From positions 124,001 to 188,000 of the forward strand of contig JAAOMT010000067.1 of NCBI GenBank assembly GCA_016748015.1: 64,000 bases of DNA. The letters are read 5' to 3'. Below, piece by piece: positions 28,624 through 61,755 of the stretch. The notes under the pieces were generated by a model, which saw only the letters and a list, made by a program, of their open reading frames with translations, had not been told where the DNA came from and ran no database searches. The position numbers and the translations under genes are program-made. Origin of the DNA: Geosiphon pyriformis uo1 (Eukaryota > Fungi > Glomeromycota). Every line of letters starts with the position of its first letter. The stretch's first letter is position 1.

Positions 28624-29993
28624 TTCATGTTAATAATTATTATTGGTTCTAGATTTTGTGAAATCTTTTCTAATTGAACTAGTATTCTCTATACTCCTAA
28701 TTGTAAAATATTATTGGTCAATAATAATGCTATATTATGATACAGTTTTAGTCGATTATTATGTGCTGCTTTGGTTAAGATTTTGTTGTTTCATCTTAAT
28801 CTATAAGTTCCATTTCCTAGAATTTCTTCTATGTGAAATAGTTTGTCTCATTTGGAGTCAAATTTTTTACTCCATTGTTTTTCTACTTTGGTATGATGTA
28901 AAAATACTTTGTTTCCAATCTTGAATTCAACTGGTTTATCTGATAATTGATTATTGTGTCTTTTTTTTTGTTTTTTTTGTAATTTTTGGATGTTATCAAC
29001 TGCTCTTTGCTATTTGTTTTCTAGTGTTTCTATTAAGTCATATGTTCTTCTTAATAATGTTTCTTGGAAATTTTCTTCTGTTATTGGTTCTGTTGAATAT
29101 GTTTTAACTTCTATTTTGATTGGTACTGTTGCTGTTTTATTATATACTAATTTAAATGATGTAGTTTGTATAGTGTCTTGTTTCATTGTCCAATAAGCAA
29201 ATAATACTGATAATATAAACAAATCTCATTCATCTTGGTTTTTTTAGCTGATTTTGGCTATTGTTTGATACAATGTTCTATTGAATCTTTCAACTAAGCC
29301 ATTAGTTTGTGGATGATATGATAATAACAATGGTCTTTTAATTCCAAATTTTTAACTTAATTCTGCTAATATTCTGTTTACAAAATGAGTTTCTTGGTCA
29401 GATAACAATTTTTTTAAACATCCATGTTGGCAGATTAAATTTTGATGAACAAATTTGGCAACAGATTTTGCATCTGCTTTTTGAATTGCTTTTGCTTCTG
29501 GCTATTTAGTAAGATAATTTATGGCTACTGCAATATATCTATTTTCTCTGCTGGTTATTGTTAATACTCTGACTAAGTTAATTCCAATTCAATCAAATAG
29601 TTGTTTTATTTTAATTGGTTATAATGATTTGCTGAGTCTTGTCCTTTCTCTTCTCTAACAAACATCACAATTTTGAACATATTGAATAATGTCTGAATAT
29701 ATTAATGGCCAATAATATTTTTTTTTGGTTTTTTTTATAGTTGCTTCTTTATGAAAATATTCTGCTATTAGATCTCAGTATATGTTATATAGTATTGTTT
29801 CTTTTTTTGCTTTTGTGATTACTTTGAGTAATTAATCTGAATTCTTTTTGTTTTTCCAATATAATATATTCTGGTAAGTGATAAAATGTTTGGATTGTTG
29901 TTTTATGTTGTTTCACTTTTTTTGAGATAATTTTTTTTGGAATTGTTGAGTATTAATATAATATTAAAGTTGTTGATATTTTTGTGTATTTAT
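28612..29993 (-). pseudogene. Integrase of A'
   Basis: ORF 29010-29222 matches the A integrase; YYWP and YHPQTNGLVERFNRTL-type relics. Confidence 0.85.
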
Positions 29994-30024
29994 TTTTTGT
30001 TATATTTTTGGGTTGAAATGGTTT

Positions 30025-31782
30025 TTAGATTTGTTTTATTTGTAACAAACCATCAACATTTCCATTTTTTTTTCTTTTTTTATACTGTACTATATAATTA
30101 AATAGAAATAGTTTTATTTTTTATCTTGTATAATAGTTGTCTCCAAATTCTTGCTTCTGAATTGATGTTAATCTCTTGTAATTAGTGTATACATCAAACT
30201 TTTGACTTAAGTATTTCTTTTATTTGATGACAACTCAGTAGATAACTAAGTGCTCTAATGTTGGTGTTCTATAATTTTTCTCAGCTGGACTTAAGCTTTG
30301 GCTGGCATAAGCTACTGAATGTTTTTGTCCATCTGGTCTTTTCTGAGATAATACAGTTCTTAATACTTGACCAAATACATCAGTGGTAATAATGAATGGT
30401 TTAATGTGATCTGGATAAATTAATACTGGGGCTTGAATAAGTTTTCTTCTCAGTATGTCAAAAGCTTTTTGTTAGATTTCAGTCTATTTGTATTTGGAGT
30501 TCTTTGTTTGAAGTTGGTACAATAGTTAAGCTAATTTGAAAAAGTTTTTGATAAAGTGCTGATAGTATTTAGCAAATCTCAAAAATGCTTTTAATTCTGT
30601 CAAGTTTGTTAATACTAAAAAGTTCTTTATTATCTCTATTTTATCTGGATCTGTTTTGATTCCATCTTTGCTCATTACATGTTCCAAAAATTTCAACTCT
30701 GTTTTTCTGAAAAAGCACTTGGTGGCATTTAACTTTAGTTCTGCTTGTTTCAGTTTTTTAAACACTTGTTGTAAATAATAAAAATAGTCATCAAATGTTT
30801 TTGAAAATACGTTGGTATTATCTAAATACACAACTATTAATTTCCATAATAGTCTTCTATAAACAATTTTTATTAGTCATTGGAAGATGGCTGAAGTATT
30901 CATTAAGCCAAAAAGCATAACATTAAATTCAAAATTTTCTTCTTGGGTTATAAATACTGTCTTCTTCTTATTTTTTGGTTTTATGGCTACTTGCCAATAA
31001 TCACTATTCAAGTTTAATGTTAAGAACCATTTTTTTCCTCCAAATACATCAAAAAGTTTTTGAATCTTTGAGATTGGGTAGCTATCTTTTTTTGTTACTC
31101 CATTCAGTTTTTGGTAATTCACACAAAATCAAATTTTTCCATTTTTTTCAAACCAATACAATTGGTAAAGATCATGAACTTATTAATGATTGAATTAACC
31201 TATTGTTCAACATCCAGTTTATTTCCTGTCATATAATTTTATAGTTTGCTGGTAGTACCTGATATGCTTGTTGTTTAATTGGCATTGTATCTTTTGTCTT
31301 AATTTGGTATTGGATAATATTGGTTTTGCCAAATTTGTTCTCACTGGTAAAGATATCAGTAAAATTATTGAGTAATATTTTGAGTTGTATTTGTTGAAGT
31401 GGGTTCAAGTTTCTTAAGTTTATTTGTTCTAATTGTTCTGGTTGGAGCAAATAATATTCTTTTTATTTGTAAATTGTTTCTGATGTAATATTCACATATC
31501 TACATAGTTGTGAAAAATCTAGAATGAAGTTTGGTGGTTGCTTCTCAACTTCAATAATTAAGTATCTAATAATGGTCTCTTTTGTTATTTCAATGGAGTT
31601 TTCAGTTGTGTTGTAGATAGAAATTTTAATATGGTTGTTGTTTTTGGCTGGTATGTAAAAATTGGTAAGCCCAATTTTTTTGATTTACAAATGGTTGGCT
31701 TGGCTTCAAAAATCTGTAATTGATCTTTCACTTTTTTTTCTACTATTAATATATATTTGTCATATGATAGAATAGAAACTGG
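30025..31782 (-). pseudogene. RT/RNase H part of pol of A'
   Basis: ORFs 30526-30831 (YLDN from YLDD), 30877-31122 (YWQV...KTVFIT...FEFNVMLFGLMN) and 31229-31450. Confidence 0.9.
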
Positions 31783-32660
31783 TGTTACAGATGACAATTT
31801 CTGGTGTTGAATTAAATACGAACCCATAACTTGGTGCTCAAAGCTATTCTTATTGTCGATGATCTGAAGGTTTGGTATCTGAAGGTTTTGTATCTGAAGG
31901 ATTTGGTTGAGTTTTTTGTATAATGAACAGAGATTCAATGGTGATAGTTTTTTCTGTAGCTTTCTAAAACTGCAGTTTTGTCAATTTTTTTCTCAACTTG
32001 ATGGCTGGTATTCCTTCTGGTAAGCTATCCTCAATTGAGTGTTTTATTCTTATTTCTGGGTCTTTTACCAGTCACATTTATCCTGACATCAGTGTCCCAT
32101 GCATTAATCCTCAATAGAGTTAGTAAACAACAATAAAATCAAAACAAGAAAATAAAGAAAAGAAAATAAAATAAAGAAAGAAAAGAAATAAGCCAAGGCG
32201 ATTTGCAAGTTAGTATTCCATCAATAGCCATGATCAAGAACTATTGTTCTAGTGTGGTTAAGTATCAATTACTATCAACATAAAGTGTTGATAGTGGAAA
32301 TGGGTTTGAAATAACAAATAGTTATTTATTAGATGATTGTAATTTGGAGAATTGCTTAAATTAAATCTAAAACTAAGAGGTTTGTTTTTTCAGCTTTTAA
32401 TCCTGCTGCTATATATACATAATTGAGATTCCTCAATTCCTCAATTCTTCATGACAAGAATCCTGGAATTCCTGGAATCTTGCGATTCCTTTGAGAAAAA
32501 TCCTGAAATTCTGGAATCCTGCAATTTCTTATCGGAGAATCCTAAAATTCCTGGAATCCTGCAATTCCTGAGAGGAATCCTGGAATTCCATATTTACTAT
32601 GTCTACTTCTGATTGGCTAATAATCATGCTAATATATTTCCTATATTTCTATGAGTAACA
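31783..32660 (-). repeat. 3' LTR of A
   Basis: tgttac...gtaaca; direct repeat of the split LTR at 41082/51852. Confidence 0.97.
32409..32618 (-). promoter_or_regulatory. U3 promoter of A LTR: CCAAT box, GGA(A)TTCC(A) tandem array, TATA box
   Basis: Minus strand agccaatc (32611-32618), array of ggaatcct/ggaattcc units (32424-32590), and tatatata (32410-32417). Function is inferred from position. Confidence 0.6.
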
Positions 32661-32675
32661 TTATTCCTTCCTTTT
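32661..32675 (-). other. Polypurine tract of A
   Basis: aaaaggaaggaataa abutting the 3' LTR. Confidence 0.9.
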
Positions 32676-33370
32676 AATATTCAGCTCTATCAAAATCCAA
32701 CTTGTTTAATTCTCCCTCTTGAAGTATTTTCTGGATTTCATTTTTGAGAATTACTTGTGTTATTTGGGTCTGTAATTCTTTAAATTGAGCATTGGTAATT
32801 TTTCCCAATTGATTACTGGTAACCATATCTATTGCTTTGTTGAGTAATATTTCTGGTCTATCCTGAAATGTTGTGTGTATTCGGTATATAGCTCAGGCCT
32901 GTGTGGATAAGTTGTTCTTTTCCACAAAATGTTCTAATTATTGTAGTATTCTTTTGTTGAATAATTGCTTTGTTTTATCCATATATAGATTCTGAATATT
33001 TACATGTTGTCCCAAGTAAAAATAACAATAGTTTTGTGGAAATTGTTGTATCTATCAATTCCAAGTTTCTTTAGTCAACTCTTGATATAGTGATTCTTTT
33101 GTCAACTCTCTTATTGCTAAATTTTACTTTCGCAATGATTTTGTCCACAGTATTTTCAGTTTTCTTCTGTGTTCTGGATTGCAATGTCTTTCTAGTATCT
33201 TGATATTGAATGGTTTGTTGATTGATTGTAATCTCTATTTCCTGGTGTTGGATCAATTGAAAGAGTTGTTGTGCTAGTGAGTGAATGTTGTCTGTAATTT
33301 CCATTTTTCTGATATTTCCTGTCATGTTTACCATGTCTTTATATATTCTTTTGATGGATCAATTTGACAT
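32674..33370 (-). pseudogene. Accessory ORF3 of A (unknown function)
   Basis: ORF 33071-33334 plus a frameshifted continuation YCYFYLGQHV...AIYRIHTTF...QLGKITNAQFKEL, homologous to ORF3 of B, C and D. Confidence 0.8.
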
Positions 33371-34717
33371 GTTGTTGTCAATAATAATGATTGGTTCCAG
33401 ATCTCGTGAAATCTGATTTGGTTGGACTAGTATTCTCTGTACTCCTAATTGTGGAATATTACTGGTGGATGGTAGTATGGTGTTGTGGTATGGTTTCAGT
33501 CGATCTCCATGTGCTGCTTTGGTTAAGATTTTGTTATTCAGTCTAAATTTGTAAGCTCTATTTCCTAGAATTTTTTCTATGTGAAATGGTCTGTCCTATT
33601 TGGGGTCAAATTTTCTACTGCATTGTTTTTCTGCTTTGGTATGATGTAAGAGTACTTTGTCTTCAATCTTGAATTCAACTGGTTTGTCTGGTAGTTGATT
33701 ATCATGTCTTTTTTTTTGTTTCTCTTGTGACTTTTGTATGTTATCAGCTGCTCTTTTTAAGTTATATGTTCTTCTTAACAATGTTTCTTGGAAATTTTCT
33801 TCTGTTATTGATTCAGTTGGATATGTGTTGACTTCTATCTTTACTGGTAATGTTGCTGTTCTACCGTATACTAATTCAAATGGTGTTGCTTGTGTAGTGT
33901 CTTGCTTCATTGTTTGATAAGCAAATAGTACTGATGGTATCAACACATCTCAATTGTTCTGGTTTTCTTGACTGAACTTAGCTATTGCTTTACACAATGT
34001 TCTGTTGAATTTTTTGACTAATCCGTTGGTTTGTGGATGGTATGGTGATGATAGTGGTCTCTTAATTTCGAATCTTTGGCTCAATTCTGTTAATGTTCTG
34101 TTCACAAAATGAGTTCCTTGGTCTGATAATAATTTCTTTGGACATCCATGTTAACAAATTAAATCTTGATGAATGAATTTGGCAACGGATTCTGCATCCA
34201 CTTTTTGAATTGCTTTTGCCTCTGGCCATTTAGTGAGATAGTCCATGACTACTGCTATGTATCTGTTTCCTCCTCTGGTGATTGTTAATGGTCTGACTAG
34301 ATTAATTCCAATATGGTCAAATGGTTGTCCCACTTTAATTGGTCTTAATGGTTCACTGGGTTTTGTTCCTTCTCTTCGCTGACAAGCATCACAATTTTAA
34401 ACATATTGGATGATGTCTGGATACATTGATGGCCAATAGTATTTTTTTCTGGTTCTTTTTATGGTTACTTCTTTGTGAAAGTGTCTTGCTGTTGGATTTG
34501 AATGCATGTTGAATAATATTGTCTCTTTTTCTGGCTCTGTAATTACTCTGGTTGGTTGCTCTAGCTCTCTTCTATTTTTCCAATAAAGTATATTTTGGTA
34601 AGTGATAAAATATTTTAATTGTTGTTTGATACTCTTTCGTTTTGTTTGAGATAAATTCTCCTTGAACTGTTGAGTGTTTATATAATGTTGCAGTTGTTGA
34701 TATTTTTGTATGTTCAT
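33359..34717 (-). pseudogene. Integrase of A (own ATG)
   Basis: ORFs 34397-34717 (H..H, YYWP), 34151-34333 (PFDHIGINLV...DYLTKWPEA) and 33596-33946 share one frame, different from the RT frame; GPF/Y-like C-terminal domain. Confidence 0.92.
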
Positions 34718-34778
34718 CTTTTGTTATATTTTTTGTTGGTATTGTTCTGGTTTTATTATATTTTGGGTTGAAATGTTC

Positions 34779-37700
34779 TTAGATTTGTTTCATTCATGAC
34801 AAACCATCAGTATTTCTGTTGTCTTTTCCCTTTTTATAATGTATAGTATAATTATATAGTGTGAATGCCATTTTCTATTTTGACTATCTTCCATCTCCAA
34901 ATTCTTGTTTTTGAAGTGATGTTAATCCTTTGTGATCTGTGTATACTTCAAACTTCTGGCTCAAGTATTTTTTCTATTTCATGACTGCCCAGTATATTGC
35001 TAAGTGTTTTTGTTCCAGTGTTTCATAGTTCTTTTCGGCTGGTGTTAAACTTTTGCTGGCATATGCTACTGGATGTTTTCTGCCGTTTGGTTCTCTCTGA
35101 GATAATACTGCTTCCAATGCTTGGCCAAATAGATTGGTGATAATGATGAATGGTTTGCTATAATCTGGATAGATCAGTACTGGAGCTTGAATGAGCTTTT
35201 TTTTCAGAATATCAAAAGCTTCTTGTTGACTTTCTGTCCATTCATATTTTGTATTCTTGGTTTGCAGTTGGTTGAGTGGCTGCGCTATCTTGGAAAAGTT
35301 CTTGATAAAATGTCGATAGTAGCTGGCAAATTCCAAAAATGATTTCAGTTCTGTCATATTTGTCAGCACTGAAAAGTTCTTTACTATCTCTATTTTCTTT
35401 GGATCCATTTTGATGCTGTCTTTGCTGACTATTTGTCCCAAGAATTTTAGTTCTGTTTTGCCGAAAAAACACTTTGTTGCATTTAACTTTAGTCCTGCTT
35501 TTCTTAGTCTTTCGAACACTTGTTGAAGATGATAAAGATGATCATCAAATGTTTTTGAAAATACATTGGTGTCATCCAAGTATACAACTACTAATTTCTA
35601 CAATAAGCCCATATAAACAATTTCCATTAGCCTTTGGAAAGTGGCTGGTGCATTGGTTAAGCCAAATGGTATTACTTTAAATTCAAAATTTTTTTCTTTG
35701 GTGGTAAATGCTGTCTTTTCTTTGTTAGCTGGATCTATGGCTACTTGCCAGTAACCACTGTCCAGGTCTAATGTTGAAAACTATTTGTTTCCACTGAAAG
35801 CATCAAATAATTCTTGGATCCGTGGAGTGGGGTAGCTATCTCCATGAATTACTCTATTGAGTTTTCTATAATCCACACAAAAGCGGATCTTTCCATTCTT
35901 TTTATAAACAAGTACCACTAGTGACAACCATGGGCTCATTGATGGCTGAATTAGCCCATTGTCAAGCATTCGGTTTATTTCTTGCCGGATAATCTCATGG
36001 CTAGCTGGTGGTACTCTGTATGCTCTTTGTTTAATTGGCATTGCATTTCCAGTCTTGATCTGATGCTGGATAATATCCGTTCAGCCAAACTCATTTTTGC
36101 TGGCAAAGATGTCATTGAAATTGTTGAGCAACATCTTAAGTTGCATATTTTGAAGTGGATCCAAGTTTCTCATGTTCATTTGTTCTAATTGTTCTGGTTG
36201 GAGCAAATAACATTCACTTCGTCCATATATTGTTTGTGATGTTATATCAACATATTCACAAAGCTGTGGAAAGTTTGGAATGGGGTTTGGTGGTTGGTCT
36301 TCTATTTCTGTGGTTAAATATCCGATGGTGGTTTCTTCTGGTATATTGATGACATTGTCAGTGTTGTTGTAGATGGGAATTTTTATGCGGTTATAGCTTT
36401 TGGCTGGTATGTGAAGATTGCTTAGTCCAATCTCTCCTGATTCACAAAGGTTTGCTTCAGCTTCAAAAATTTGTTCTTGCTCCTTTTCCTTCTTTTTTAT
36501 TGCTAGCATGTACTGGCTATATGATAGAATAGAAATAGCTTGACCGGTTGAGATAATTTTTTCTTGGCCAACAATTTCTTCCTCTGTCATATTAACTGGT
36601 ACATCTATTCTACTAGTTAACCCAAATCCCTGTATTCCTCTTGCTGTTATCCCTAATTCCTCCCTCTTTTTTACTGATACCAACTGAGCTACTCTAACCA
36701 GAGGCAGAAATATTGCCTGTGCTATCTTTTTGTTGGATTCTATTATATAGGTCTTTTCTGAGTCATTTTGTAACATAGTGATGATATTTCTTACATATCC
36801 TGTGTCAATTATTTCTCCTCTTATATTAATCCCTTTTTTCACTAAACTATTCCTAGATGCTAATTGAATCATTGTTGTTGCTGGAATTTCCAGCACTATT
36901 TTCAGATCAATACAGGTGCGCAAATGTGGTTCCAATTTGATGGCATCTTTTTCTGAAAATCTTAGATCAAACCTGGTATCAGTATCATGCATGCATTCTG
37001 GCATGATACCTTCATCATTATCATTGAACCATTTCAGTTTCTGTTCCTTAGTGAGGTCAGAGAGTGCGATATATTGTTCATAGTTTAAATCGGAGTTGAA
37101 ATCTGAGTTGGAATTGTTGTCGTTGTTAATGCCATTTTGAACAGAACTGGAACTGGTGTTTTTGTTGTCATCTTTGTTGAAGTTTGAATCGGAATTGAAA
37201 ATCAATTCCAATTCCAATGTGCAGCTGCTAATTGGTTCTTCCTCTTCAGGAATTGTGTAGATCATGCGTGGTGGTAGATTGTAAATGAAGTCACACTCAT
37301 TACAATATTGGAAGTTACATGGAATCAAACAATAGTTACATAGTCGAGTGTTTATTTCTTCCAATATTTGTTCCTGCTCTTCTCTGATGGGTGCTAAGTT
37401 CTGATAGTGTTCATGAAATTCTTCTGGGCTGTTTTCTAAGTTGAAAAAGGCATACAGATTGAGAACCAAAACAATGTTTGTTGGTTCTGGAGGGTTGTTT
37501 TTGATCTTCAGAATTTCACTGGGCAAAGTGCCCTCTACTTTGGCATTGGCCATTTACCAGATTTCATTTTTGTTGTGTGGGTAACCTTCTAAGTGAGAGA
37601 TTACTCGGTGCCAGGCGGCTGTTATTGGCATGTCGCAACTCACCCAATCACTAATGAGGATTGTGTATTGGCATGAAGTGTCGCACATTTCTTCTTGACC

Positions 37701-40700
37701 AGGAATGTCATTCCACATTCCTTTGTCGAGTAACTGTTCGCCGCAAGCGAGACATGGTTTGTTGTCCCACTTGCCTTGTCGTTTTGGGTAACTATAGCAT
37801 TCTCTATGGCATGGTTTGCAGTAGTAGTGGGTTCATGTCTAGTAGTCTTCGTTTGGTGTGATTCATGCTCCCATGGAAAAAAGTTTCTTCTTGCAGTCCT
37901 GACATTTTAAGGGAATGTAAGGTGGCTTCTTTACTGGCTTACGTAAGTATTTTCTTTTCCAGCCACTGGTTATTTTTTCTGTGGCTTCGTTGGCTTTTCC
38001 AGATAAGTCTTCTTCTTTCTTCTTTCTTTTCCCTTTTTTTTCCCAGCTGGTTGGTATTGCTTTGCTTTCGTCATCATTATTCCAGGCATCAATAGTGGTC
38101 TCACAGGTATGTTCTTCTGTTTCTGTTCTTTTTCCTTTTATATTGTTCATTTCTTCCCAGTCTAGAATTGGTGGTAGCTCATTGTGTTTGACGTCGGCCC
38201 ACAATACTTGGTACATCTTCCAAGTAGGCTTTGGTTTTTCCTCCTCGAAATCGATGAGCAGCATTGATGATGTGACGTTGTTAGGTTTGAAATGGCCACA
38301 CGTAGCTAGTACTTACGTGTATTGGCTGTTTTGGCTAAGTTGGAATTCCTGTGTGTTTCAGTCAAGCATTGCGTTGGTTTTGAACAACCAGTTGTTGTCA
38401 ACGAGAGCTTGGTACTGGGTTGCTTCCATTACTAATATCTTGATTGATACAGTGATACCATTGATTTCAATGGATAGATTGTTAATCTCGCCAATGGGAG
38501 TTTTGGTTGCTCTATCGGCTGTTATGATTCTGGCACTGGCAGCACAATCAACTTGGCAACCTAATTGGTCCATAAGTTGTCATGTGATAATGCTGCCTGC
38601 TAACCCACTATCAAGAATAAGCTTGATGGAATGGCCATCAATTTTGGTATTGGTGTACATCGCCGTAATGGGTTTTTCCTCAATAGTGGCTTCGCTGAAC
38701 AAAAGAATTCCTGATGGTTCCTCAATTTCAAATGGGAATATGGTTGCAAGTGACTCGTCTTCTGTGACAGTGGCTGGTGGAATATTGCTGGTGAGTGTTA
38801 ATTGTTGGTTGGATCCCGAATTGGTGTTGGTGGCATCTTCTGGGGTAACCAAGAGACTTAAATAGTTCTGGAAATTTGGGTTTTGGATGGCACTAGTACC
38901 CGAATTTTGTGAATGCAATCCTAATGGTAAGTTGAAAGAACTGGGGATCAGTTAGTGGACAACTATTGCCAATCTCCAGTTTTGTGTTATTCTAGATCTG
39001 GGGTGGCCTGATGTTATATTAACTGAATTTTGGGGTGGTGTCTGAATTGATTGGGGTTGATAAATTATTTGGGGTTGTGACTGATAGATTACTGGTGGCT
39101 GTGGTTAATAAATTTGAGGTTGATATACTGGCAGTTGATAGATTGGTGGCTGCGTCATTAGCAAGTAAGTAGTTTGATCTTGATTTGGGTAATGATTCAG
39201 AGTTTGAAATCTGTGATCAAGATTTTGATATTGATTTCCCAATTGTGAATTGTTGCTATAAAATTTGCAGTCTGTTTTTATGTGTTCTTGTTTACCACAG
39301 TTGTGGCAAACACATGTTTTTGGCTGCCATGACTGATTAGGTGCTGCTGATGATAATGATAGACATAACTGATTTTGGAAATGATTCACATTTTCTGGAT
39401 TGTTGTGTTATTGTGGTAGTTGATAAATTGCGCGATTGTCAGTTAAGTATTCCTTTAACTTCTGATTAATTGAATCACTGAATTGTTTCAATTTAGAATC
39501 CAATTCAGATGATCTATTCATCACTAGGTTCACAGCATAGGCATAATTGACTTCTAATTTGGCAGATTTGAAATCTCTGGCATGTGTGACTGCATTCTGG
39601 AGAGTGGTTGGATACAATGGGCATATGTGTTGCAGGATGCTACTGCACAGACCATGAATAAATTGATTGAAAATTTGTGGCACTGTGAAATAATTAGCAT
39701 CAATTGCTTGGATTTGTTGGAGATTTCTATGGAAGTGTCCCAGATATGTGGTAACTGCTTCAGTTTCTCCTTGTTTAATTGTAGTGAAAGTGTTGGCTAA
39801 TCTGTTGATACTGTTGTTATTGCTAAAGTATCTCAAAAATTCTAATTTGAAGGTGTTGAAATCTTGGAGTTTGTCAATCAGGCTTTGATACCATAAATCT
39901 GCTGTATCCTTAAGAAAATAAGGTATGACTTACATGGCTCTGACGTCATTCCATCTATTGGCTGTGATGGCTTTTTCTATATTGTTTAGCCAAACTTGTG
40001 TGTCATCCTCTTTGTTGGTGAATTTGTCAAGCTTTGTGATTGGTGCATATGCCATTTGTTGTTGTTGCTGTGGTGGAAGTTGTTATTGTTGTTGAGGTAA
40101 TACTGGAAGTGGTTGTTAATTTTGTTGGTTCAGTATTTGGATGGGCTGACCAATTAGTTCAACTGGTGGTTAATCAATGACAATAACTGGAGGTAAGTGT
40201 TGATTAATTACTTCGGAGTTTTGATTTTGTGGTGCTTGAATATTTGGAGTTTTGATTTCTGAATTTTCTCACTGAGTTTAAATGTTCGGGAATTCAAATT
40301 CTGGGTTTTCAAGGATCGGGTTTTAATAAGTAAATTTTTGATCTTCCGATTTTTCTTCCTTTTCTTCTTCAGATAGTTCTCATGGGGTAGTGGTTCCAAA
40401 GTCCAGTTGAGGTGGCAGTGATCAAATTCCTAATGGTGTTAGTGATTGCAACTTAAATCCTTCAAAATATTTGCCATATAGTCCTAGTAGATCTGTTTTT
40501 TTTTGTTTACTTTGGAATAGAAATTGTCTGAATGTTGATATCGCGTTTGATGTGGACGTATTTGCTAATGTTATATTGATGGCGCTTCCTGGTGTGTAGT
40601 GATAAGATGGAACAGTTGGTGATTCAACTCTTGTTTTCTTCCAAGTGGGTGGTTGTATCCTTTTGGGTGTTACTGCTGGTGTTTGTAGTTTTCCTTTGCC

Positions 40701-41019
40701 TTTATTGGTGTAAGTAATTAGATATCTTTGTTGGGTGTGATGTTCAATTTCTTTGTTGATCTCAGTAATAAAGGAGGCAAAATTGTGATTTGTTGGCAGA
40801 TTGGTATTTTTGAATTAATTCTCTATAGAAAGTTTCCCTGGCTGATTCAGTATTCACTGGTGTTCCTAACAAAGAGAAAATCTTTTCATTGATGTAAAAA
40901 TTAAAGACTGATTTGGCAGATATATGATTGTGGTTTAATCCCAAATGTTGACAATAGTGTTGAAATAAGGATTTTGCGAATCCTAAATGGTTTACTCCTA
41001 TGTTTTCTAATTCTGCCAC
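34779..41019 (-). pseudogene. Gag-Pol of A (N-extension, capsid, CCHC, protease, Cys-rich module, dUTPase, RT, RNase H)
   Basis: Eight ORF fragments from 34974 to 39836 lie in one frame: CHNCGKQEHIKTDC knuckle, LILDSG protease, dUTPase motifs, VYLDD RT, HPVAYASKSL RNase H. Confidence 0.93.
36610..37010 (-). pseudogene. dut: dUTPase domain within pol of A
   Basis: All five trimeric dUTPase motifs are recognisable: xFDL, SRNSL, IIDTGY, KIAQAIF, RGIQGFG. Confidence 0.88.
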
Positions 41020-41061
41020 TTTTGGATGGTGTTTGTTGGTGCTGGTTTTTTGTAAGATTAT

Positions 41062-41079
41062 ACCTCACAGGAAGCACCA
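41062..41079 (-). other. Primer-binding site of A
   Basis: tggtgcttcctgtgaggt, 2 nt after the LTR; complementary to a tRNA ending CTCACAGGAAGCACCA. Confidence 0.9.
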
Positions 41080-41081
41080 AA

Positions 41082-41834
41082 TGTTACAGGTGACAATTTC
41101 GGGTGTTAAATTAAATATGAACTCATAACTTGGTGCTCAAAGCTATTCTTGTTGTTGATGATCTGAAGGTTTAGTATCTGAAAGTTTTGTATCTGAAGAG
41201 TTTGGTTGAGTTTTTTGTATAATGGACAGAGATTATATGGTGATAGTTTTTTCCGTAGCTTTCCGAAACCACAGTTTTGTCAATTTTTTTCTCAGCTTGA
41301 TGGCCAGTATTCTTTCTAATAAGCTATCCTCAATTGAGTGTTTTACCCTTATTTCTGGGTCTTTTACCAGTTACATTTATTCTGACGTCAGTGCCCCGCA
41401 CGTTAATCCTTAATAGAGTTAGTAAACAACAATAAAATCAAAGCAAGAAAATAAAAAAAATAAAATAAAATAAAGAAAGAAAAGAAATAAGCCAAGATGA
41501 TTTGCAAGTTAGTATTTCATCAATAGCCATGATCAAGAGTTATTGTTCCAGTATGGTTAAGTATCAATTATTATCAACATAAAGTATTGATAGTGGAAAT
41601 GAGTTTGAGATAACAAATAATTATTTATTGAATGATTGTAATTTGGAGAGTTGCTTAGATTAAATCTAAAACTAAGAGGTCTGTCTTTTCAGTTTCTAAT
41701 CCTGCTGCTATATATACATAATTGAGATTCCTCAATTTCTCGATTTTTCATGACAGGAATCCTGAAATTCCTGGAATCCTGTGATTCTTTTGAGAGGAAT
41801 CCTGGAATTCTGGAATTCTGTAATTCCTTATCAG
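41082..41834 (-). repeat. 5' LTR of A, part 1 (split by B)
   Basis: Aligns to 31783-32535. Confidence 0.96.
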
Positions 41835-42820
41835 TGTTACCAGAGGTTTTTGGTCTTTTCTTAGCTCTTGTATGTTTGTTGTAATGCTGTTAATTCACGA
41901 TTATGGAAAGTGTTTGAACCTCCGATAACTGAATTTATCTTCAAATTATCTTCTATAATTTGAACTGCTGGGCTTATAAATAGAATGGCCAATTCTGTGC
42001 CAGTTACTTTGTATAGTTACATTGTAGTAAACGTCAACTCTTTCCCAGAAATTGTTCATCTGAAAGCTCACTAAAAATATGTAGTTACTTTGCTGTGAAA
42101 GTCAACTCTTTTACAGAAATTCTTGTCTGTAGGATACTCAAATGATTTATAATAAGAACAGAAAGAAAATAAAGGAAATGTAAAAAAAAAAGTAAAACTG
42201 ATAATTTATAGGAGCTGTTTCGGATCCAGGCCTGGAAGTGCTTTAACAGTCTACTGAAATTGGTAGCTAATCAATTTCAAACTGTTAGTAGAAATTGGTT
42301 AATTTCAAGGGAAATAATTTAAGAATTTGGCTTTTCGAATTTATTTGATATTTATTTTGTTTTTGTGTGTAAAGAATGATTCTAATTATTAAATCTGAAG
42401 TAAGATACATTTTCTTGAAGAGAAAAGCTCTTCTTTTATACAACTTGTCATAACACTATTTTATGAACTTGAACTTTGCTCTTTTCTACAATTTTGCTGA
42501 ACTAAAGATATATTTTGGCAAACTACAAGTTATTTCTGCGAACTATTAGATATTTCAGTGAACTATCAATTATTTCGGCAAATTTCTACAAATTTCGGCA
42601 AACTTTTGAATGTTACATATTTCAGGGTATTGCATGATTGATCATTACACTTAGGTTACATTTGTGTTATGTACAAATTGGGTTATTAATTAAATGATAA
42701 TTTCGGACATTTTGCCAATGTAATAAGTGATAATTTGAAATAATAATATATGCTAATTAATGATAAAATTTATAAGGGTAATTTTATGCTAAATAATATT
42801 TCTAATTTTGTCTGGTAACA
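41835..42820 (-). repeat. 3' LTR of B
   Basis: tgttaccaga...tctggtaaca; direct repeat of 50739-51723. ~21-bp ttcggcgaact-like array at 42460-42610 and TATAAAA at 42434-42440 (minus strand). Confidence 0.97.
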
Positions 42821-43508
42821 TAACCTCCTCCTCAAAACTGAGCTCCATCGAAGTCCAAGTACTGTCTGTAATTTCCAGATAATAATCCAAAATTATTGAA
42901 GAAATTTGGTCTGAAAATTGTTGAAATTTCAGTTCTGTGAGCTTTCCAATGTATTGAATCTTCAAAGGCTGTAAAATTGGGTTTTGTAGGACGTTTTCAC
43001 AGGTATGAAATAGGTTATAAAGTCTAAGAGCAGCTCTTAGTTTATAATGACTGTTTGTAGGTCCAGCTGTTGTCTTGAATTCATTGTAGAGTTGTTTCCG
43101 AATAGCTTTTTTTGTGAGGTTTGCTGCTGTAAGCTCCTGTTTTTGTTCATGAAGTGTTTTTCCAATGTAGAAATATCTATATATTGGAGTATAGTTGTAG
43201 TTTTTTTCATTAAGACACAGTTGAAGTTTTTGTTGAATAGTAGCATTCAGTGGAATACTAATAGGAATGAGTATTAAGTTTTCTCTTAAAGCAAGCTTTA
43301 GAAGTTTTGGCAGGTGAATTCCAGAATAACTTCTTGTGTTCTTCTTATACAGGTGATATTTTTGTGCATTTGGGGCTAAATTTGTAACTACTTCTGTTTG
43401 GGTATAATTAATGTGGTTTCCAGTAACAGTAATAGATAATTTGGGTATTGTTTTTAAAGCTAACATTAGTTTTTGGAATAATTATTGAATGTTTTGAGAA
43501 ATAGACAT
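42789..43508 (-). pseudogene. Accessory ORF3 of B (unknown function)
   Basis: 225-aa open frame 42789-43466 plus an in-frame upstream ATG at 43508 (MSISQNIQ*LFQKL). Motifs YRYFYIGK, AALRLYNLF, YIGKLTELKFQQF. Reads through the PPT into the LTR. Confidence 0.82.
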
Positions 43509-43630
43509 TATAAAAGATTTGAAAATAAAAGAAAATTATTTTTGGTGTATGGGTTTTTATGTTATTTTTGTTTTGTTTTTGTGAAATTGTTTCTAAATTA
43601 TAATGATATAACTATAATGATAAATTTAAA

Positions 43631-45016
43631 TTAAGTGTTTAAGTTGGGAGGTTGTTCAATGACAACTATTGGTTCTAATTTTTGGAGAATATTTTTGGAA
43701 TTGATTAAAGAAAAATGTGTACCAATTTGTGAAATTAATGGTTCAAGATTGTTTCTGGAATTATAGTGTTTCAAACAATCTCTATGTGCAACTTTTGCTA
43801 GAATTTTGTCATCAAGTCTTAGCTTGTATGATCCATTGCCTAGGACTTCATGGATAAAGAATAGTCTATCCCATTTATTTTCAAATTTTCCACTCCATTG
43901 TTTTTCAGCTTTAGTTCTATGTAAGAGAACTTTGTTTTCAATTTTAAATCCATTGGTAACTGGAGGCAATTTGTCATCATGCCATTCTTTTTGTTGAGCT
44001 TGGAAGTGTTTAATATGGGTGGCTGCTATTCATTATTTTCTTTCCAATGTGCTAAGCAGAGTGTAGGCTCTTTGTTGTAGTGTTTCCTGGAAATTGTTTT
44101 TATCAATTGGTTGTATTGGGTATGTTTCCATGATGAAACTAATTGGTAATGTTGCTGTCCTTCCATAAGTTAAATCAAATGGTATGTGTTTTGTGGTATT
44201 TTGTTTTAGTGTTCTATATGCCAGTAATACTGATAAAATAAAGAGATCCCATTCTTGCTTAAAATTGGTTGAGACTTTGGCTAATGATTCACACAATGTT
44301 CTGTTGAAACGTTCTACAAGTCTATTTGTTTATGGATGGTAGGGTGAAGATAATAGTCTCTTGACATTAAATTGTCCACAAATTTTCTAGATTAAATTGT
44401 TCACAAAATGTGTTCCTTAATCAGATAAAAGTTCTATTGGGCATCCATGTCTACAAATGATGTCTTCATAGATGAAGTTTGTTACTGATTTTGCATCTGT
44501 TCATTGAATGGCTCTGGCTTCAGGCCATTTGGTGAGATAGTACACAGCTATTGCAATATAAAGGTTTCCTTGGTTTGTGATGGGGAGTGGTCCGACTAAA
44601 TTGATATCAACTCGGTCAAACAGCTGTTCAACTTTGATTGGGTTTAAAAGTTCTATAGAGTGAGTTTCTTCTCTTCTTTGACAACTATTACAAGACTTAA
44701 CATATTCATGAATGTCTTTTCTCATTTGAGGCCAAAAATAATATGCTAGTGTTCTCTGGGTGGTGCTGTCTTTTCCTAGGTGTGCTGATGAAAGGTCTGA
44801 ATGCATGTTATATAAAATGGTTTCTTTTTCATGTTCTTGTATTAATCTGAGTGGATTTTTTAGGTTTCTGAAGTTTCAATAATAAATAATGTTGTTGTGT
44901 AAGAAATATTGTTTGGCTTGTTGTTGTAACCAATGTTTTTCATTTGGGAACCAATCTGTTGGGATTGTTAATGTCTCCAGATATTGTTTAAAATTGTTGT
45001 AGTTTTCGGGGTTCAT
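43631..45016 (-). pseudogene. Integrase of B (own ATG)
   Basis: Starts MNPENYNNFKQYL at 45016. ORFs 44501-44806 (H-H...CNSC), 44033-44296 and 43631-43969 (WSGKFENKW...LGNGSYKL). Confidence 0.92.
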
Positions 45017-45062
45017 TGTTTGTTGTTTTGTTGTTAATTCAAATGGGTGTTGTTTTTATGTT

Positions 45063-48000
45063 CTAATCTTGCCTTATTCTTGAGAAACAATCAACATTGG
45101 TGTGGAGTTTTCCTGGTTTGTGATGTACAATGAATTGGTAGTTGGCTAAAAATCTTGTCCATCAGGTTTGTTTGACATTCAGCTGAGTGTTTTTGTTTTG
45201 AAGCCATTTGAATCCAATATTATCAGTAATAATATCGAATTCTTTGGGTTAGAGGTAAAGGTTGAAGTGATGTAGGGCCCAGATTACTGCTGCAGTTTTT
45301 AATTCTGTTGCAGGGTAGTTTTTTTCAGCTGGCTTCAATGTTTTGCTAGCATAAGCAATTACTCACTCATTTCCATTGTTATCTAATTGTGATAGGATGG
45401 CACCAAAGACAGTATAAGAGACATCTGTTGTTAACCAGAATCGGTTGCTGAAATCTGGGTAAGCAAGAATTGGAGCTGTGGTTAGTTTTTCTTTAAGGAT
45501 TTCAAATGTATTTTGGTGTTCAGCAGTCCATTTGTATTTGACATTTTTGGTGATAAGCTGGTTGAGAGATTTTGCGATTTCTGAGAATCCTTTGATAAAC
45601 TTCTGATAGTAGGAGGCTAACCCTATGAATCCTCTTAATTCTGTAGTGTTTTGAAGAGTTTTGAAGTTTTTGACAGCACTGATTTTTCCAGGGTCTGGTT
45701 TGATTCCATTTTTACTAACAATGTGACCAAGAAAGACCAAGCTTGTTTTTCCAAAGTAGCATTTTTCGATGTTGAGTTTCAGTTCTGCTTTTTGTAATTG
45801 TTGAAATACTTCTTGCAGGTGTTTTAAGTGTAATTCAAATGATAGAGAATAAACATCAGTATCATTAAGATAAACGACTACTAACTTCCAAAGGAGTCCT
45901 TTGTACACAATATCCATTAATCTCTGAAATGTTGCTGGTGCATTGCATAATCCAAAAGGCATTACATTGAATTTGTAGTTTTCTCCTTGGGTTGTGAAGG
46001 CTGTTTTGGAATGATCTTTGGAATTCATGGCAACTTGCCAGTATCTGCTTTCTAGATCTAGTGTTGAAAAGTATTTTGATTTTCCAAGAGCATCTAACAT
46101 GTCATCAATTCGGGAAAGAAGGTAAGCATCTTCCATGGTGATGCTGTTGAGTTGTCAATAATTAACACAAAATTGTATCTTTCTATTTTTCTTCTTAACT
46201 AGGATCACAGACAAGGCCCATAGACTCATTGATGGTTGAATAAGCCCATTGTTAAGCATCCATTGTACTTCTTTTCAGATAAATTGGTGGCTTTTTGGAG
46301 CAACTCGGTAGGCTTGTTGTCACCTTGGTTTGGCATCTCCTGTATAGATTTGGTGTTAAACCAAATCAGTTCTTCCTAAGTCATTGTTGTTTTCGACAAA
46401 GATATTGGCAAATTCTGCAATTAGCTCTTTAAGCTGGTTTTGTTGTTGTGGTTCAAGTTGTCTCATGTTGATTCAAGATAGTTTTTCTATAACAACATGG
46501 TAGTTTTCAGAGCTGGTGTTTGGGTTGATTTTTGGTAGTAAATGTCCAATAATTTCAGAGAAATTGGAGATTGTTTGGGGTAATTCTTGTTGAAAGATAT
46601 TACTGTGAATAACTCCAATTTCTAAGTTATTTAATAAAACTATGAGGAAATTGTTGGGATTGTAAAAAGTAACTCGGATTTTCTTTGTTCCTTCTGGAAT
46701 ATAAATGTTTGGGATCGAGATATTATATTCCAAGCAGATTTGTTTGTTGGACTCAAAAATTTGTTGTGTGGTTGTTGGCTTTTCACAAGTGTAAATTTCA
46801 GTGTGTTTTCCAAAGAGTGAAATGGTAATTGGTTGTGGAAGTTGTAAAATCTAGTAAGATTCTTTCTGTTTATTGAGAGCTATGTTTACTAAAACTGTGA
46901 ATTGTCCAGTTGAACCAAAACCTTGGGTTCTTCTTTCACTTTTTCCCAATAGTTCTCTTTAATTGACTAATTGTAAACCCAAAATGTTGATTAAAAGTAA
47001 ATAAATGGCTTGAGCAATTTTCTCAGCATGTTTAATCTTAAATGGCTTGTCAGTTTCATTTTGGAGTATTATTGTTATGTCACCAGTATATCCAGCATCG
47101 ATTATTCCTCTTTTGACATTGATTTTTTTGCTTGCCAGAGAGGACCAGGAGGCAATTTGAACCATTGCTCCTGGTGGGATTTCAAGAGCAATTTTGAGGT
47201 TGATTTTTGTGAGAGATTTGGGTTTGAGAATGAGAGTATCCTTGTCTGGATATCTTAGGTCATATCCAGCATTAATTTTATGTGCTTTTTCAGGTTTTAT
47301 TCCTTGTTCGTTGTTGTTGAAGTATTTGAGTTGTAAGGCAGACTGGTTTTTGATGAAATAGATGAGTGTTGTTTCAATTTTTTCTGTTGCTTCAGGTTTT
47401 CCAAATTCAATTTTGTTCTCATTGTTTTTACTGGGCAGAAGAATGCTAAGAGCATAGCATTTAGAACACCACTGTTAATCACAAGGCATAATGCATTTTT
47501 CACATAGCCTAATGTTCATTTGCTTTAATCATTGAATTTGAGCTTTTTGGGTTGGATAGGTGTGACTTGCAATTTGGTGGTAAACTTCTACTTCATCTTC
47601 ATAATTAAATCTAGCTAATTCCATAGTGTATTCAATGTATTCTGCTTCCTTCATTTGACAGACATCTTCTTTGGTAGCTCTATTAATTAATGCCATTGCT
47701 AGATTAAAAATCATCTTAGCATCATGGGGGTAGTGATAAAGTTTGTTGAGAGCACTGTTGTATGCTGCATTAAAGGGTGTTTCTCTTTTTACTTTTTCTG
47801 AAATTGATAAAGCATATTGGTAGGTCTGATTGCAGACTCTTCCTCTCATTGTTACATCAATCCAATTGCATTCTTCTGGTAGCATATCTCCACAAGTCAA
47901 ACAAGGAGTGTTATCCTATTTTCTGCTTCTTTTTATTAGATGGCCCCATTGTTCTCTGTGGCAAGTCTTGCAGTAATAACAAGTATGATTTTCATATTCT

Positions 48001-50694
48001 TCTTCAGGTGAAATGCAGGCTTCCATTGAGAAGAGTTTCTTTGGCAGTCCTTGCATTTGAGTGGAATGTAGGGGCATTGTTTTTGTGGTTTTGGTTTTGA
48101 ATAGGGGACATTCCATCCAGTTGTCACTGGTTCTTTTGTTTCAAGAGAATCATTTGTTGAAAAGTACTGTTGTTTAGTTTCATCGGCCCAATTGGAGGTT
48201 GATCCAAGTGCCATAAATGTTTCAATGATGGGCTTTTCTTCTTCTGGTTTGAATTCAAAAGCCAGGGCTTTTTTGGAGCATTTGTTGAATGTACCACAAA
48301 TGACAGGTACCTAGGCATGTTGTCCTTGGTAGGAGATTGTTAACTCTTGTGTCTTCCAATTCAAATTAGCATTGGCTTTTTGAAGCCAATTATTTCCGAC
48401 AAGAGCTTGGTACTGGGGCACATCCATTACAAGAACTTTGACTGGAATGGTGATTCCATTAAGAGTGAATAGAAAATTGTCAATTTCTTTTACTGGAGTC
48501 TTTTTCATGCTATCGGCAGTAATAATTACTGTTTGAGCTTGTCGGTCAACATTTCTCTTTAACTGTTGCATTAACTGGTAGGTGATGATACTTCCGGCAG
48601 ATCCACTGTTTAGGATTAAGTGAATTGCTTTTTCTTCGACTTTTGCTTTAGTGTATATAGCAGTGATTGCTTTTTGTTTATTGGTGGCCACATTGCTAAG
48701 CAGGAATGGTGACTTATTTGCTTCAAACTCAAAAGAAAATATGTCTGAAAGGTTGGCATTTTTAGCAATTCTGGCTGGTGAAATTGTGGTAGGAGTATAG
48801 GAAGGGTTTTGTTGTCATGCTGCAGCTCTATCTTCCGAGAGTACAGTATGGTGAAAATCCTGTTCTTCAGGTATTGTAAGATAGCTAAGTTGAGTATGAT
48901 AATGGGTGGGTTTTGGCTAAGCTGGATTTCGGGGAACTAATTGGTTGTTTGAATTGATTCTATTGTTGTTTACTTGGTATCGATTTTGTGGTGTAAATTG
49001 ATTTTGTGGGATTAATTTTCGAGCAGGCACTTGATAATGTTGTGTGGGTGGTTGTTGGTATTGCTGTTGAATTGGCTGTAGGCAGGCTGATAATAGTTAC
49101 TTTGATATTGGGGTCTTGGTAGATAGTAAGCTGGTGATGGTGGTTGATAATAAGATTGTTGTGGTGGAGAATAACGTTGATTACTCCTATTTTGTTGGTT
49201 TCGTTATAGCTTTCTGCAATCTTTTTTCCAGTGGCCAGGAATTTCACAGTAATGGCAACTCTGAGGCTGGTTATTAGAGGGTGATGTGAAGTTGTTTTGA
49301 TTCCGTCTTTGGGGTGGTTGATATCTTTGAGGTTGCTGTTGTTGTTGGTTGGTGAAATAGTTTTCGACTTTTTTTGCAAGTTGGTCAATTTTTTCTTCAG
49401 CTGCTGAGCTGGTTTCTCCAATGATTAAGTTCATGAGTTTTGTACAATTGGCTTCTTTCATGGCCATTTTATATCTCTTTGCATGCTGAATGGCAGAGTT
49501 TAAATCTTCTGGGGCATGTGAGTGAATCTTTTTAATCAGTTTATCCTTTAAACCAGCAATAAATTGATCCAAAATTTGAGCATCGGAATAATAATTATTA
49601 GTTTCAAGTTGGCAAATTTGTCTAAGAAGTTTTTTGAATTTCCCAATATAAGTCATAACAGATTCGGAGGGTTCTTGTTTGATATTGTGAAAACAATTTC
49701 GAAGAGTGATTGAGGTGTTGTTATCAGTGAATTGTTCTAAGAAGGCAGTTTTGAAAGCTGTCCAGTCATTAAAAGAGGTGGTCAAGTTTTCAAACCATTC
49801 ACCTGCTGTTCCTTTGAGAAAGTAGAGAATTGTTCTTAACATTTTGGCAGCATTCCATCTATTTGCATCTCCAGCTTTAGTAACTTGGTTGAGCCATTTT
49901 TGAGGACTGGTCTCAATGTCTTCTCTATTGAATTTAGGGATTTTTGCAATGTATGCTGTCATTTTATCTTCTTTGTTTTCACTGTCTATTGATTCTTCTT
50001 TAGATATTTCAGAGTCGTTTTCTTTGTTCGCTGCTGTCTCATAGTGTTCACTTTGATTTTCAGCTAGAAAGTCAAGAAGATTGGAACTAGTTTGAAGGAG
50101 TTCTTGTTGTCTGGTGGGACTTCTGGGTAATGTAAAATCTTCTAGTCTTGTAAATCAATTTAAGAGTGAATTAAGTATTTGTGCTTGTGCAAGTAAAGCT
50201 GAAAAAGGTGTGATAGTAAGTGGAAGTTTTGAACTGGTTCCTTGTTCAGGTGTTTGTAAGTGTTTGGCAGTTGTTTTTGGTAGTATTGGAGTATTTGAGG
50301 TGGTTTTTGAGTATTGCTTCAATTTTTGTTTGTCTTTGTTGCTTGTTTCTGTCTCTGATTCAAAATCAATGGAGTATTGAGATTGCACTGGATATATTTC
50401 TTCACAGTACTTGATAATGTTAAAATTTAGTTCTTGAAAGTAAGTGACAAGTGTTTCACTGTTAAGGTCTTTAGTTTCTAACTGTGAATAGTGTACTAAA
50501 TTATTGTAAAGATTGCTTCTAACTTCTGAGATATTGTAATTTCTAAAAAAATAATTGTTGATATGGTTTTCAATGTATTGGTATACTGATTTCTTGACAA
50601 CTTCAATTCCGTCTGGAATGTTGAATCTTTGCTTGCAGTGGGTGTAAATTAATTGGTAATACTCTAGAGTTGTTGCGTCTGGTGTGGTTGCCAC
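45063..50694 (-). pseudogene. Gag-Pol of B (capsid, CCHC, protease, Cys-rich module, dUTPase, RT, RNase H)
   Basis: ORF 49204-49962 capsid plus CHYCEIPGHWKKDC; 48311-48691 LILNSGSAG protease; 46959-47165 dUTPase; 45363-46136 RT ([18 protein letters not shown]). Confidence 0.93.
46905..47290 (-). pseudogene. dut: dUTPase domain within pol of B
   Basis: Motifs NAGYDL, SWSSL, GIIDAGYTGDI, KIAQAI, QGFGSTG. Confidence 0.9.
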
Positions 50695-50738
50695 TTTGAA
50701 GTTGTTTTGCTGTGTTGTTTCTGTGAAAGAGCACCAAA

Positions 50739-51723: not shown

Positions 51724-51727
51724 TCGG

Positions 51728-56048: not shown

Positions 56049-56054
56049 TAAAAG

Positions 56055-56070
56055 TGGTGCTCCCTGTGAG
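56055..56070 (+). other. Primer-binding site of C
   Basis: tggtgctccctgtgag, 6 nt after the LTR end. Confidence 0.85.
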
Positions 56071-56100
56071 ATTGTCAAAATTCACTTATTCCCTTATTGT

Positions 56101-57639: not shown

Positions 57640-57641
57640 CC

Positions 57642-60367: not shown

Positions 60368-60400
60368 TTATTTGTAACTCCTCTACAAACAAACATAATA

Positions 60401-61714: not shown

Positions 61715-61755
61715 ATAAATGCACCATTCTCAAAACAGAGGTATCTTCAATTGAC

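Follow-up and report, generated by a model that had tools for sequence, protein, structure and literature searches.

Retrotransposons with long terminal repeats (LTRs) and also retroviruses, as they are generally taught, deliver integrase (IN) as a part of Pol. For Ty3 and Ty1, PMC5371799 reports that IN supplied separately from reverse transcriptase (RT) does not rescue cDNA synthesis. We describe here a lineage of Ty3/Gypsy-type elements in which IN is a gene of its own, with its own AUG beyond the stop codon of RNase H (RH), and in which that dependence must therefore have been solved. The lineage is represented in a 64,000-nucleotide stretch of the genome of the fungus Geosiphon pyriformis uo1 (contig JAAOMT010000067.1, forward-strand positions 124,001 to 188,000), here called the window and used for all coordinates unless a locus is named, which holds three near-complete LTR elements (A, B and C) plus decayed fragments.

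These elements share with Ty3/Gypsy (Metaviridae) long direct LTRs ending in TG...CA, primer-binding-site (PBS)-like and polypurine tracts, a target duplication, a zinc-knuckle Gag and the order Gag, protease (PR), in some cases dUTPase, RT of the RVT_1 type, RH and IN; fungi and rotifers are known to have elements with a dUTPase in that place (PMC6431247). They differ in that IN lies outside the Pol frame, a third conserved cistron (open reading frame X, ORF-X) follows IN and further cistrons can be inserted before it. Caulimoviruses, which to our knowledge have no integrase, are also reverse-transcribing and also carry serial cistrons on one RNA with variable short gaps. Their TAV transactivator permits restart after long ORFs (PMC10275272), whereas no TAV homologue was found here, ORF-X having neither a Pfam match above the cut-off nor a fold match.

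We found no description of an LTR retrotransposon that encodes IN behind RH in an ORF of its own in a search of mostly open-access literature that left out supplements, Repbase and GyDB; the repeat libraries in the supplements of PMC11952901 or Repbase could contain these elements. Where published texts speak of a "separate ORF," they mean gag plus pol, env or a non-LTR element (PMC6839031, PMC6431247, 10.1101/2021.03.30.436303, PMC5751038, PMC13465315, PMC3248453, PMC10275272, PMC11952901, PMC2939329, PMC5371799, PMC7459421, PMC5911963, PMC2582038 and PMC4427930).

Integrase is split from Pol in the window and in other genomic copies

Pfam matched RVT_1 and RT_RNaseH ahead of the stop codon and Integrase_H2C2 and rve past the ATG. 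In element A, the RH end D-G-L-S-(TGA)-M-K-Q-I is closed by a TAA (34781-34779), and a 61-nt spacer leads to the IN ATG (34717-34715); in element B, D-C-F-S-R-I-R-Q-D is followed by a TAG (45065-45063), a 46-nt spacer and an ATG at 45016. The decayed copies A′ (TAA at 30027, 31-nt spacer) and B′ (TAA at 17748, 41-nt spacer) have ATA at the codon homologous to the IN start (29993 and 17704, respectively), and both A and A′ have an additional in-frame TAA three codons ahead of that start. A preliminary description of this DNA had claimed an RH stop followed by an IN start at an ATG in another frame, and direct reading bore out its coordinates for A, A′ and B, the decay of the start to ATA in A′ and B′, the additional TAA and the spacer lengths that are not multiples of 3. 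For B′, the stop was correctly placed and the spacer, given as ~26 nt, needed correction to 41 nt, which is likewise not a multiple of 3.

All of the window copies are decayed. The RT-RH and IN regions carry 6 stops in 433 codons and 5 in 453 codons in A, 7 and 7 stops in B, and 1 and 2 in C, and the observed/expected CpG ratio of the copies is 0.13 to 0.29. The window alone is therefore insufficient to exclude decay as the cause of the split. LTR sequence makes up 41.2% of the G. pyriformis genome (PMC11952901), and we placed Logan contigs from a DNA run of the organism (X1) on the A and C junctions; X1 may be the source sample of the window, so that this comparison tests copies inside the genome and not an independent organism. 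At the A junction, 6808 contig pieces gave 95 variable places, and the 40 best supported of these include neither the stop nor the ATG. Among 1151 pieces at the C junction, the full list of 32 variable places includes none at the TAA (60365-60367), and an A-to-G change at 60403, present in 54% of the depth and thus the majority letter, creates an ATG at 60401, opening an M-D-L start homologous to the other IN starts. Given the variant-free TAA and the majority ATG, C is split as well, with an in-frame spacer of 33 nt; the copies give no support to the decayed CAA that the preliminary description had considered possible at 60365. Two further runs, X2 and X3, contributed 1 and 0 pieces at the A junction.

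The split extends through the close relatives

A search with the IN of A returned 586 proteins of 249 to 793 amino acids (aa). The best 120, which we examined, are mostly 400 to 440 aa long and share a start position, M-D/N/E-x-x-x-Y; the named ones among them are from Rhizophagus irregularis. Intact members of the lineage are present in R. irregularis and in R. clarus. As many as 118 of these 120 start with Met, but this is partly an artefact of gene calling and of the length range searched, and therefore only the common start position counts.

From 575 metagenomic loci, 80 were kept, the 34 closest and 46 others. An RH end could be matched upstream of IN in 17 of the 34, and all 17 are split, the two matched regions being free of stops in 12 of them and holding one stop in 5; most of the 17 close loci without a matched RH end are short or end in an RH tail. 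Five intact split elements retain the RT YxDD and RH motifs. Among the 46 distant controls, 28 have an RH end: 21 are fused, 4 have stops inside IN, 2 are broken or distant (L051 and L080) and 1, L036, is intact and split. At this last locus (1-2666 and 4531-6295), an intact RT-RH is split from IN by a 278-nt spacer with a tandem repeat, and a long ORF lies downstream. Its IN is 35% identical, and the RT tree places the element outside the main group, in whose count it was not included; it is possibly an independent split. Assemblies labelled as prokaryotic provided nine usable loci, seven fused, one split (L088) and one decayed (L103), which are likely fungal or animal contamination. Loci L084 to L094 and L096 are eukaryotic retroelement contigs inside bacterial genome assemblies, likely as a result of binning contamination. 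Viral contigs searched for IN gave three weak matches only.

A search for longer forms (768 to 2190 aa) yielded six with at least 44% identity among the best 120 of 629. Four of these, the fungal gene models P0121 to P0123 and P0128, have no RH end and no IN Met, which suggests that introns were predicted there across the junction. The other two, P0124 and P0127, read continuously through RH and IN, and in P0124 RT-RH, IN and ORF-X all lie in a single open frame, so the same domains also exist as a polyprotein; P0124 is possibly a re-fusion or a retained polyprotein state.

No close locus with a matched RH end, intact ones included, thus has an uninterrupted frame through to IN: all 17 are split, 12 of them free of stops, and so are all three families of the window. 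The split is real and lineage-wide and is not a product of decay, and with spacers in all phases, the proposal that IN is a separate, AUG-initiated gene expressed apart from Pol has been upheld.

Junctions vary in length and phase and have AUG-poor spacers

We compared 30 junctions, 27 from the loci plus those of A, B and C. Spacer lengths range from −11 to 727 nt, with phases 0, 1 and 2 in 7, 10 and 13 junctions, a spread that rules out a single recoding signal. Stop and start lie at most 11 nt apart in 6 of the 30, including TAATG (L010) and ATGA (L015); in the other 24 the spacer is at least 30 nt, and in the window it is 31 to 61 nt. It is very improbable that readthrough or frameshifting still yields a fused RH-IN protein, or that the split merely records the decay of dead copies. 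Seven junctions, including that of family C, are in frame, the window copies contain many decay stops and fused proteins with this IN type exist (P0124, P0127, P0129 and P0135), but the other 23 junctions are out of frame, in both phases and with freely variable lengths, no other stop is present in 12 of the 17 close loci, the Met of IN stands at a single homologous position and the stop of C is variant-free among copies.

The 20 spacers of 30 to 190 nt contain 2 ATGs against 15.3 expected (0/1000 dinucleotide shuffles), the lowest ratio of seen to expected among all 64 triplets. A cruder test of the 60 nt before 28 starts, whether coding or not, found 10 against 18.6 (2/200). Of 26 junctions, 24 have an ATG in the last 100 coding nt upstream of the stop, while the zone free of AUG lengthens with the spacer (rho 0.69), so that the clean zone begins at the stop codon. 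The context of the IN start has a purine at −3 in 25 of 29 cases and a G at +4 in 24 of 29. Some loci carry additional cistrons before IN: in L015 they are joined by two ATGA overlaps, and in L020 cistrons of 83 and 85 codons overlap by 13 and 8 nt. The long gap of L001 resolves into small ORFs with gaps of 3 to 4 nt and then 103 nt, whereas those of L017 and L084 do not resolve into chained small ORFs.

These features bear on the main alternative, which is possible though doubtful, namely, that IN and ORF-X are made from subgenomic mRNAs, arising either from an internal promoter near the RH end or by splicing from the LTR leader. The env of errantiviruses and the pol of foamy viruses are made from subgenomic RNAs, and an AUG-free leader with a strong start context would be a normal 5′ leader. 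The long spacers rich in upstream ATGs (L017 and L084) would fit an internal start, the nearest upstream ATG lies 60 to 141 nt before the IN ATG in four long spacers and some spacers are pyrimidine-rich (L005 and L023). Those of the window, however, are A/C-rich, and we found no splice acceptor or branch pattern common to the 60 nt before 29 IN starts. At overlapping junctions the leader would consist of RH coding sequence with ATGs 7 to 85 nt upstream, and each chained cistron of L015 and L020 would require a transcript of its own. A conserved splice acceptor was considered and rejected: an AG directly precedes the ATG of A, but B and most relatives lack it.

A two-stem RNA precedes the integrase AUG in one sub-lineage

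In ten loci (Table 1), a two-stem RNA of ~40 nt ends 4 to 38 nt ahead of the IN ATG (measured in nine) and begins 21 to 143 nt downstream of the upstream stop (measured in eight). The stems stand around an 11-nt one-sided loop and carry an apical loop of 8 nt. Pairing holds in 94.5% of cells, 7 of 11 pairs vary on both sides and the covariation score was reached in 0/500 shuffles, slid controls failing, for a structure derived from the same ten related sequences on which it was tested. An RNA model built from these sequences matched only these loci and, more weakly, L004 among 88 sources and gave nothing better than E 0.67 in the window; a comparison of 15 loci with Rfam, at E up to 1, was without a match. 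Pairing of the internal with the apical loop into a pseudoknot was rejected, two of its three pairs being invariant and the third unpaired in 3 of 10 sequences. A pattern match in three viral contigs, none with the stems, was taken as chance.

The upstream ORFs of six motif loci resemble the Cys/His-rich RH tail of L006 and L084, and these loci therefore represent the same kind of element, although L084 itself lacks the motif. In L006 (3497-4441), L084 (2-943) and L017 (4954-6705), RH carries an acidic C-terminal tail, 300 to 580 aa, with a Cys/His-rich segment that has no Pfam match; the sub-lineage is that of the RNA motif.

The position of the two-stem RNA suggests a role in translation control. 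Internal ribosome entry on the genomic RNA, mostly at unstructured A-rich tracts and at the two-stem RNA in one lineage, would be one such route, and it is favoured by the window spacers, for which no fold is predicted (0 kcal/mol for A, A′ and B), and by a covarying RNA placed so close to the AUG. Entry would leave the stop-start overlaps and the stop-anchored AUG-free zone unexplained, spacers of 2 to 5 nt are too short for it and the motif occurs in 10 to 11 loci only and not in the window. We consider this route quite unlikely.

Integrase and RT have travelled together

We built an RT-RH tree of 42 rows (LG+G4) and an IN tree of 45 rows, both unrooted; L103 was excluded as decayed, and P0127 was lost at the length filter. 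The RTs of the split elements are 45 to 50% identical to fused Gypsy-type RTs and nested among them, in a tree without Copia, BEL, a retroviral outgroup or named clades, and the fused P0124, P0129 and P0135 adjoin the split rows in quick RT-RH trees. Tip groups on the IN tree match those for RT (A+B, L010+P0123, L005+L021+P0121, L001+L022, L020+L031, L007+L011 and L008+L019), and IN and RT have therefore travelled together. C groups with L013+L027 on the IN tree only, and the IN of L023, which may be a chimeric contig, groups with plant elements. Gmr1-like Gypsy elements have IN before RT, an order found in L104 and P0188, and show that IN can change place as a unit inside Gypsy elements. Both L104 and P0188 lie outside the split group on both trees.

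The IN of the window resembles that of Ginger1, a stand-alone IN-like protein of ~400 aa (PMC2836005), in having, by alignment reading, a YPYY-type N-terminus, H2C2, DDE and GPY/F. Here, however, IN lies within an LTR element directly behind RT-RH, with no terminal inverted repeats (TIRs) around a lone transposase and no introns seen, and neither the INs of the window nor, by their Pfam columns, the best 120 homologues showed a C-terminal OTU or Ulp1 domain. On the tree, the split INs fall within a YPYY-type group (99/100) whose backbone is not resolved and whose other members are Athila-like, Ginger-like and fused fungal-type INs; the Ginger-like rows (P0151, P0183 and L046) were assigned from domain layout and not from Repbase Ginger1 sequences. 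The fused P0124 is the sister of the TAATG-type pair L010+P0123 on IN (100/99) and may represent a re-fusion.

Most simply, the split would have arisen by fission of a fused Pol that already bore a YPYY-type IN. Whatever the expression route, an ancestor could instead have lost its IN and acquired a free-standing transposase gene of the Ginger1-like kind together with that gene's ATG, much as the preliminary description had suggested. The position of the split INs on the YPYY side with the three Ginger-like rows, away from several Gypsy INs, would fit a capture, and the approximately unbiased (AU) test did not reject a grouping of split INs, P0124, the Ginger-like rows and P0200 (p-AU 0.195). 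On the other hand, the fused RT-tree neighbours P0124, P0129 and P0135 carry the same IN type in frame, and their grouping with the split INs was not rejected either (0.139); the YPYY type, common to Ginger1 and several Gypsy clades, is found as well in Athila/Tat, Cer1, a Rhizopus Gypsy and DGLT-A (PMC2836005), and the elements lack TIRs, OTU and Ulp1. Split INs with P0124 alone were not rejected (0.097). The rejection of split plus Ginger-like INs (0.014) was set aside as evidence because a split-only clade is also rejected, owing to P0124. The comparison of IN and RT trees thus gave agreement of the tip groups and neither supported nor excluded a Ginger capture, the AU tests fitting both origins; we regard capture as unlikely.

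Termination-reinitiation as the favoured route to integrase

Independent expression of IN, which had been proposed to occur through reinitiation, internal entry or a subgenomic RNA, stands, and of these routes the junction sequences favour the first. We lean, with modest confidence, toward a Ty3/Gypsy-type Glomeromycotina lineage that is polycistronic and would make IN by termination and reinitiation on the same genomic RNA. In favour of this are an AUG-free zone that begins at the stop codon, stop-start overlaps of the TAATG or ATGA type and added cistrons chained in the same manner. After the Pol stop, a 40S subunit would remain on the RNA, restarting immediately at overlapping junctions and, at spaced junctions including those of the window elements, scanning the AUG-free spacer of 30 to 190 nt to the IN AUG; the same restart would be repeated for ORF-X. 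Since restart would occur only after Pol translation, IN output would be tied to RT output, and IN would be made on RNA undergoing packaging, in place of a protease cut. Candidate routes from IN to cDNA are non-covalent binding to RT, Gag or RNA and a meeting with the cDNA after the particle opens.

The 6 of 30 junctions with overlapping or nearly adjacent stop and start recall the termination upstream ribosome-binding sites (TURBS) of caliciviruses and influenza B and the UAAUG of SART1. The TURBS core, UGGGA, searched for as such and not through complementarity with fungal 18S rRNA, was absent from the last 100 nt of RH ends (0/19), and stop and start within about 20 nt, as in TURBS, occur in those 6 junctions, none of them in the window, the other 24 having the longer spacers given above. 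TURBS are described as working without need for a strong Kozak context (PMC10275272), whereas a strong context is retained here. The same source states that SART1, a non-LTR retrotransposon, depends on structured RNA located downstream of its ORF1 stop, a need that brings the two-stem RNA of one sub-lineage to mind.

Several observations weigh against reinitiation within a single lineage. A subgenomic mRNA would likewise be expected to have a 5′ leader depleted of AUG, GTA (5 against 17.9) and TGC (3 against 10.7) are also depleted in the short spacers and the correlation of AUG-free zone with spacer length is partly a consequence of the depletion itself. In the four spacers of more than 200 nt, ATG is not depleted (31 against 29.6), and simple rescanning accounts poorly for L017 (727 nt, 12 ATGs, ORFs of 1 to 21 codons) and L084 (308 nt, 4 ATGs). 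A helper is usually required for reinitiation behind a long ORF, and these elements revealed none; TURBS-type reinitiation declines past ~30 nt (PMC10275272), short of the window spacers; and a stable hairpin just before the AUG, as in the sub-lineage with the two-stem RNA, would impede plain scanning. On the RT-RH tree, the branch that separates the 22 split rows from the others is weakly supported (71/88), and the AU test rejects a split-only IN clade (p-AU 0.004), the fused P0124 being nested inside.

ORF-X and other reading frames

Behind IN, most loci that extend far enough have ORF-X, of 120 to 280 aa; so do B and C, and a decayed trace remains in A. The gap from IN is mostly an overlap or a short spacer; in B it is 122 nt, and the end of ORF-X runs across the polypurine tract. 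The ORF-X of B is 86 to 90% identical to G. pyriformis hypothetical proteins, and a search of 50%-identity representatives gave 473 relatives of ORF-X with E values no higher than 0.001, many of them annotated as Geosiphon hypothetical genes; a further copy lies at L005:2284-2715. The predicted model is all-helical (predicted local distance difference test score, 92). ORF-X has no Pfam match above the cut-off, and no fold match was obtained with Foldseek, whose best E values were 0.13 for PDB and 0.25 for BFVD, or with VIA-align, whose best Z was 5.0, to generic helical repeats, although this does not equal a new fold. A first match in Atlas to closterovirus coat protein (0.94, 150 shared features) was unsupported by Foldseek and VIA-align and was rejected. 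We raise only tentatively a fuller reading for the Glomeromycotina branch, in which serial restart on one RNA, through Pol, IN, ORF-X and the occasional captured gene, would be combined with the two-stem RNA in one sub-lineage and ORF-X, as a new fold, might serve as the restart helper or carry IN to the particle.

In L015, the ORF directly before IN (521-1237), with an ATGA overlap on each side, has a Pfam match to the Mrr_cat_2 nuclease (E 5e-9). A stop also lies between PR and RT in L001 (870-875), L017 (3358-3363), L022 (1585-1590) and L013 (1866-1900), in frame in the first three; readthrough, a cistron boundary and decay are all candidate explanations.

Elements of the window

Element A has gag, PR, dUTPase, RT and RH in a single frame, then the separate IN and then the decayed ORF-X homologue. 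Its 5′ LTR is broken up by element B, which sits within it, flanked by a 4-bp target duplication (CCGA/CTGA). The LTRs of B (41835-42821 and 50739-51724; TGTTAC...GTAACA) are 94.7% alike, and the first part of the gag-side ORFs and the end of ORF-X are near or within the LTRs. A C-like copy near 7 to 12 kb lacks the RH-IN junction. The region from 14800 to 26000, at 11 to 14% GC, houses the extremely decayed B′ and a duplicated segment (20893-23625); its loss of C and G is far above that of the neighbouring elements.

Table 1. Features of the window elements and positions of the two-stem RNA in metagenomic loci
Feature	Position	Strand	Basis or remark
Element A, decayed Ty3/Gypsy-type LTR retrotransposon	31783..41832	-	Domain and LTR reading
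A: RT-RNase H coding region	34782..36080	-	6 internal stops
A: TAA terminating RNase H	34779..34781	-	
A: A/C-rich AUG-free spacer, 61 nt	34718..34778	-	No predicted fold
A: IN ORF with own ATG (H2C2, rve, weak SH3)	33356..34717	-	Internal stops; 3′ end approximate
A: dUTPase domain, between PR and RT	36594..37043	-	
A′: TAA, 31-nt spacer, decayed start ATA	29991..30027	-	
Element B	41835..51724	-	LTRs, PBS-like and polypurine tracts
B: dUTPase domain, between PR and RT	46887-47333	-	
B: TAG, 46-nt AUG-free spacer, IN ATG	45014..45065	-	
B: IN ORF, 461 codons	43631..45016	-	7 internal stops
B: ORF-X, third cistron, 239 codons	42789..43508	-	One stop
B′: TAA, 41-nt spacer, decayed start ATA	17702..17748	-	Heavily decayed copy
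Element C	55303..63119	+	LTRs 55303-56061 and 62374-63119, 89.9% alike
C: TAA, 33-nt in-frame spacer, IN start	60365..60403	+	Start ATA in window
C: IN ORF	60401..61714	+	
C: ORF-X homologue	61756..62412	+	
Two-stem RNA	L002:579-630, L003:179-230, L006:4457-4508, L009:484-535, L018:169-220		Motif loci
Two-stem RNA	L023:439-490, L025:2-53, L029:486-537, L034:13-64, L085:155-206		Motif loci
Two-stem RNA, weak	L004:18-67		Model match E 0.026

Meaning of a free integrase

Gene models seem to splice across the RH-IN junction, and surveys that go by domains may list these stand-alone INs under Ginger transposons, the rve domain having been taken as a Ginger mark in PMC5751038. A successful, high-copy lineage with a free IN represents an alternative route to the Pol-borne integrase. 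It makes testable how eukaryotic ribosomes would restart after long ORFs without TURBS and how IN would join cDNA unfused, and it offers a living model of a step between the Gypsy integrase and the stand-alone transposases of the Ginger type.

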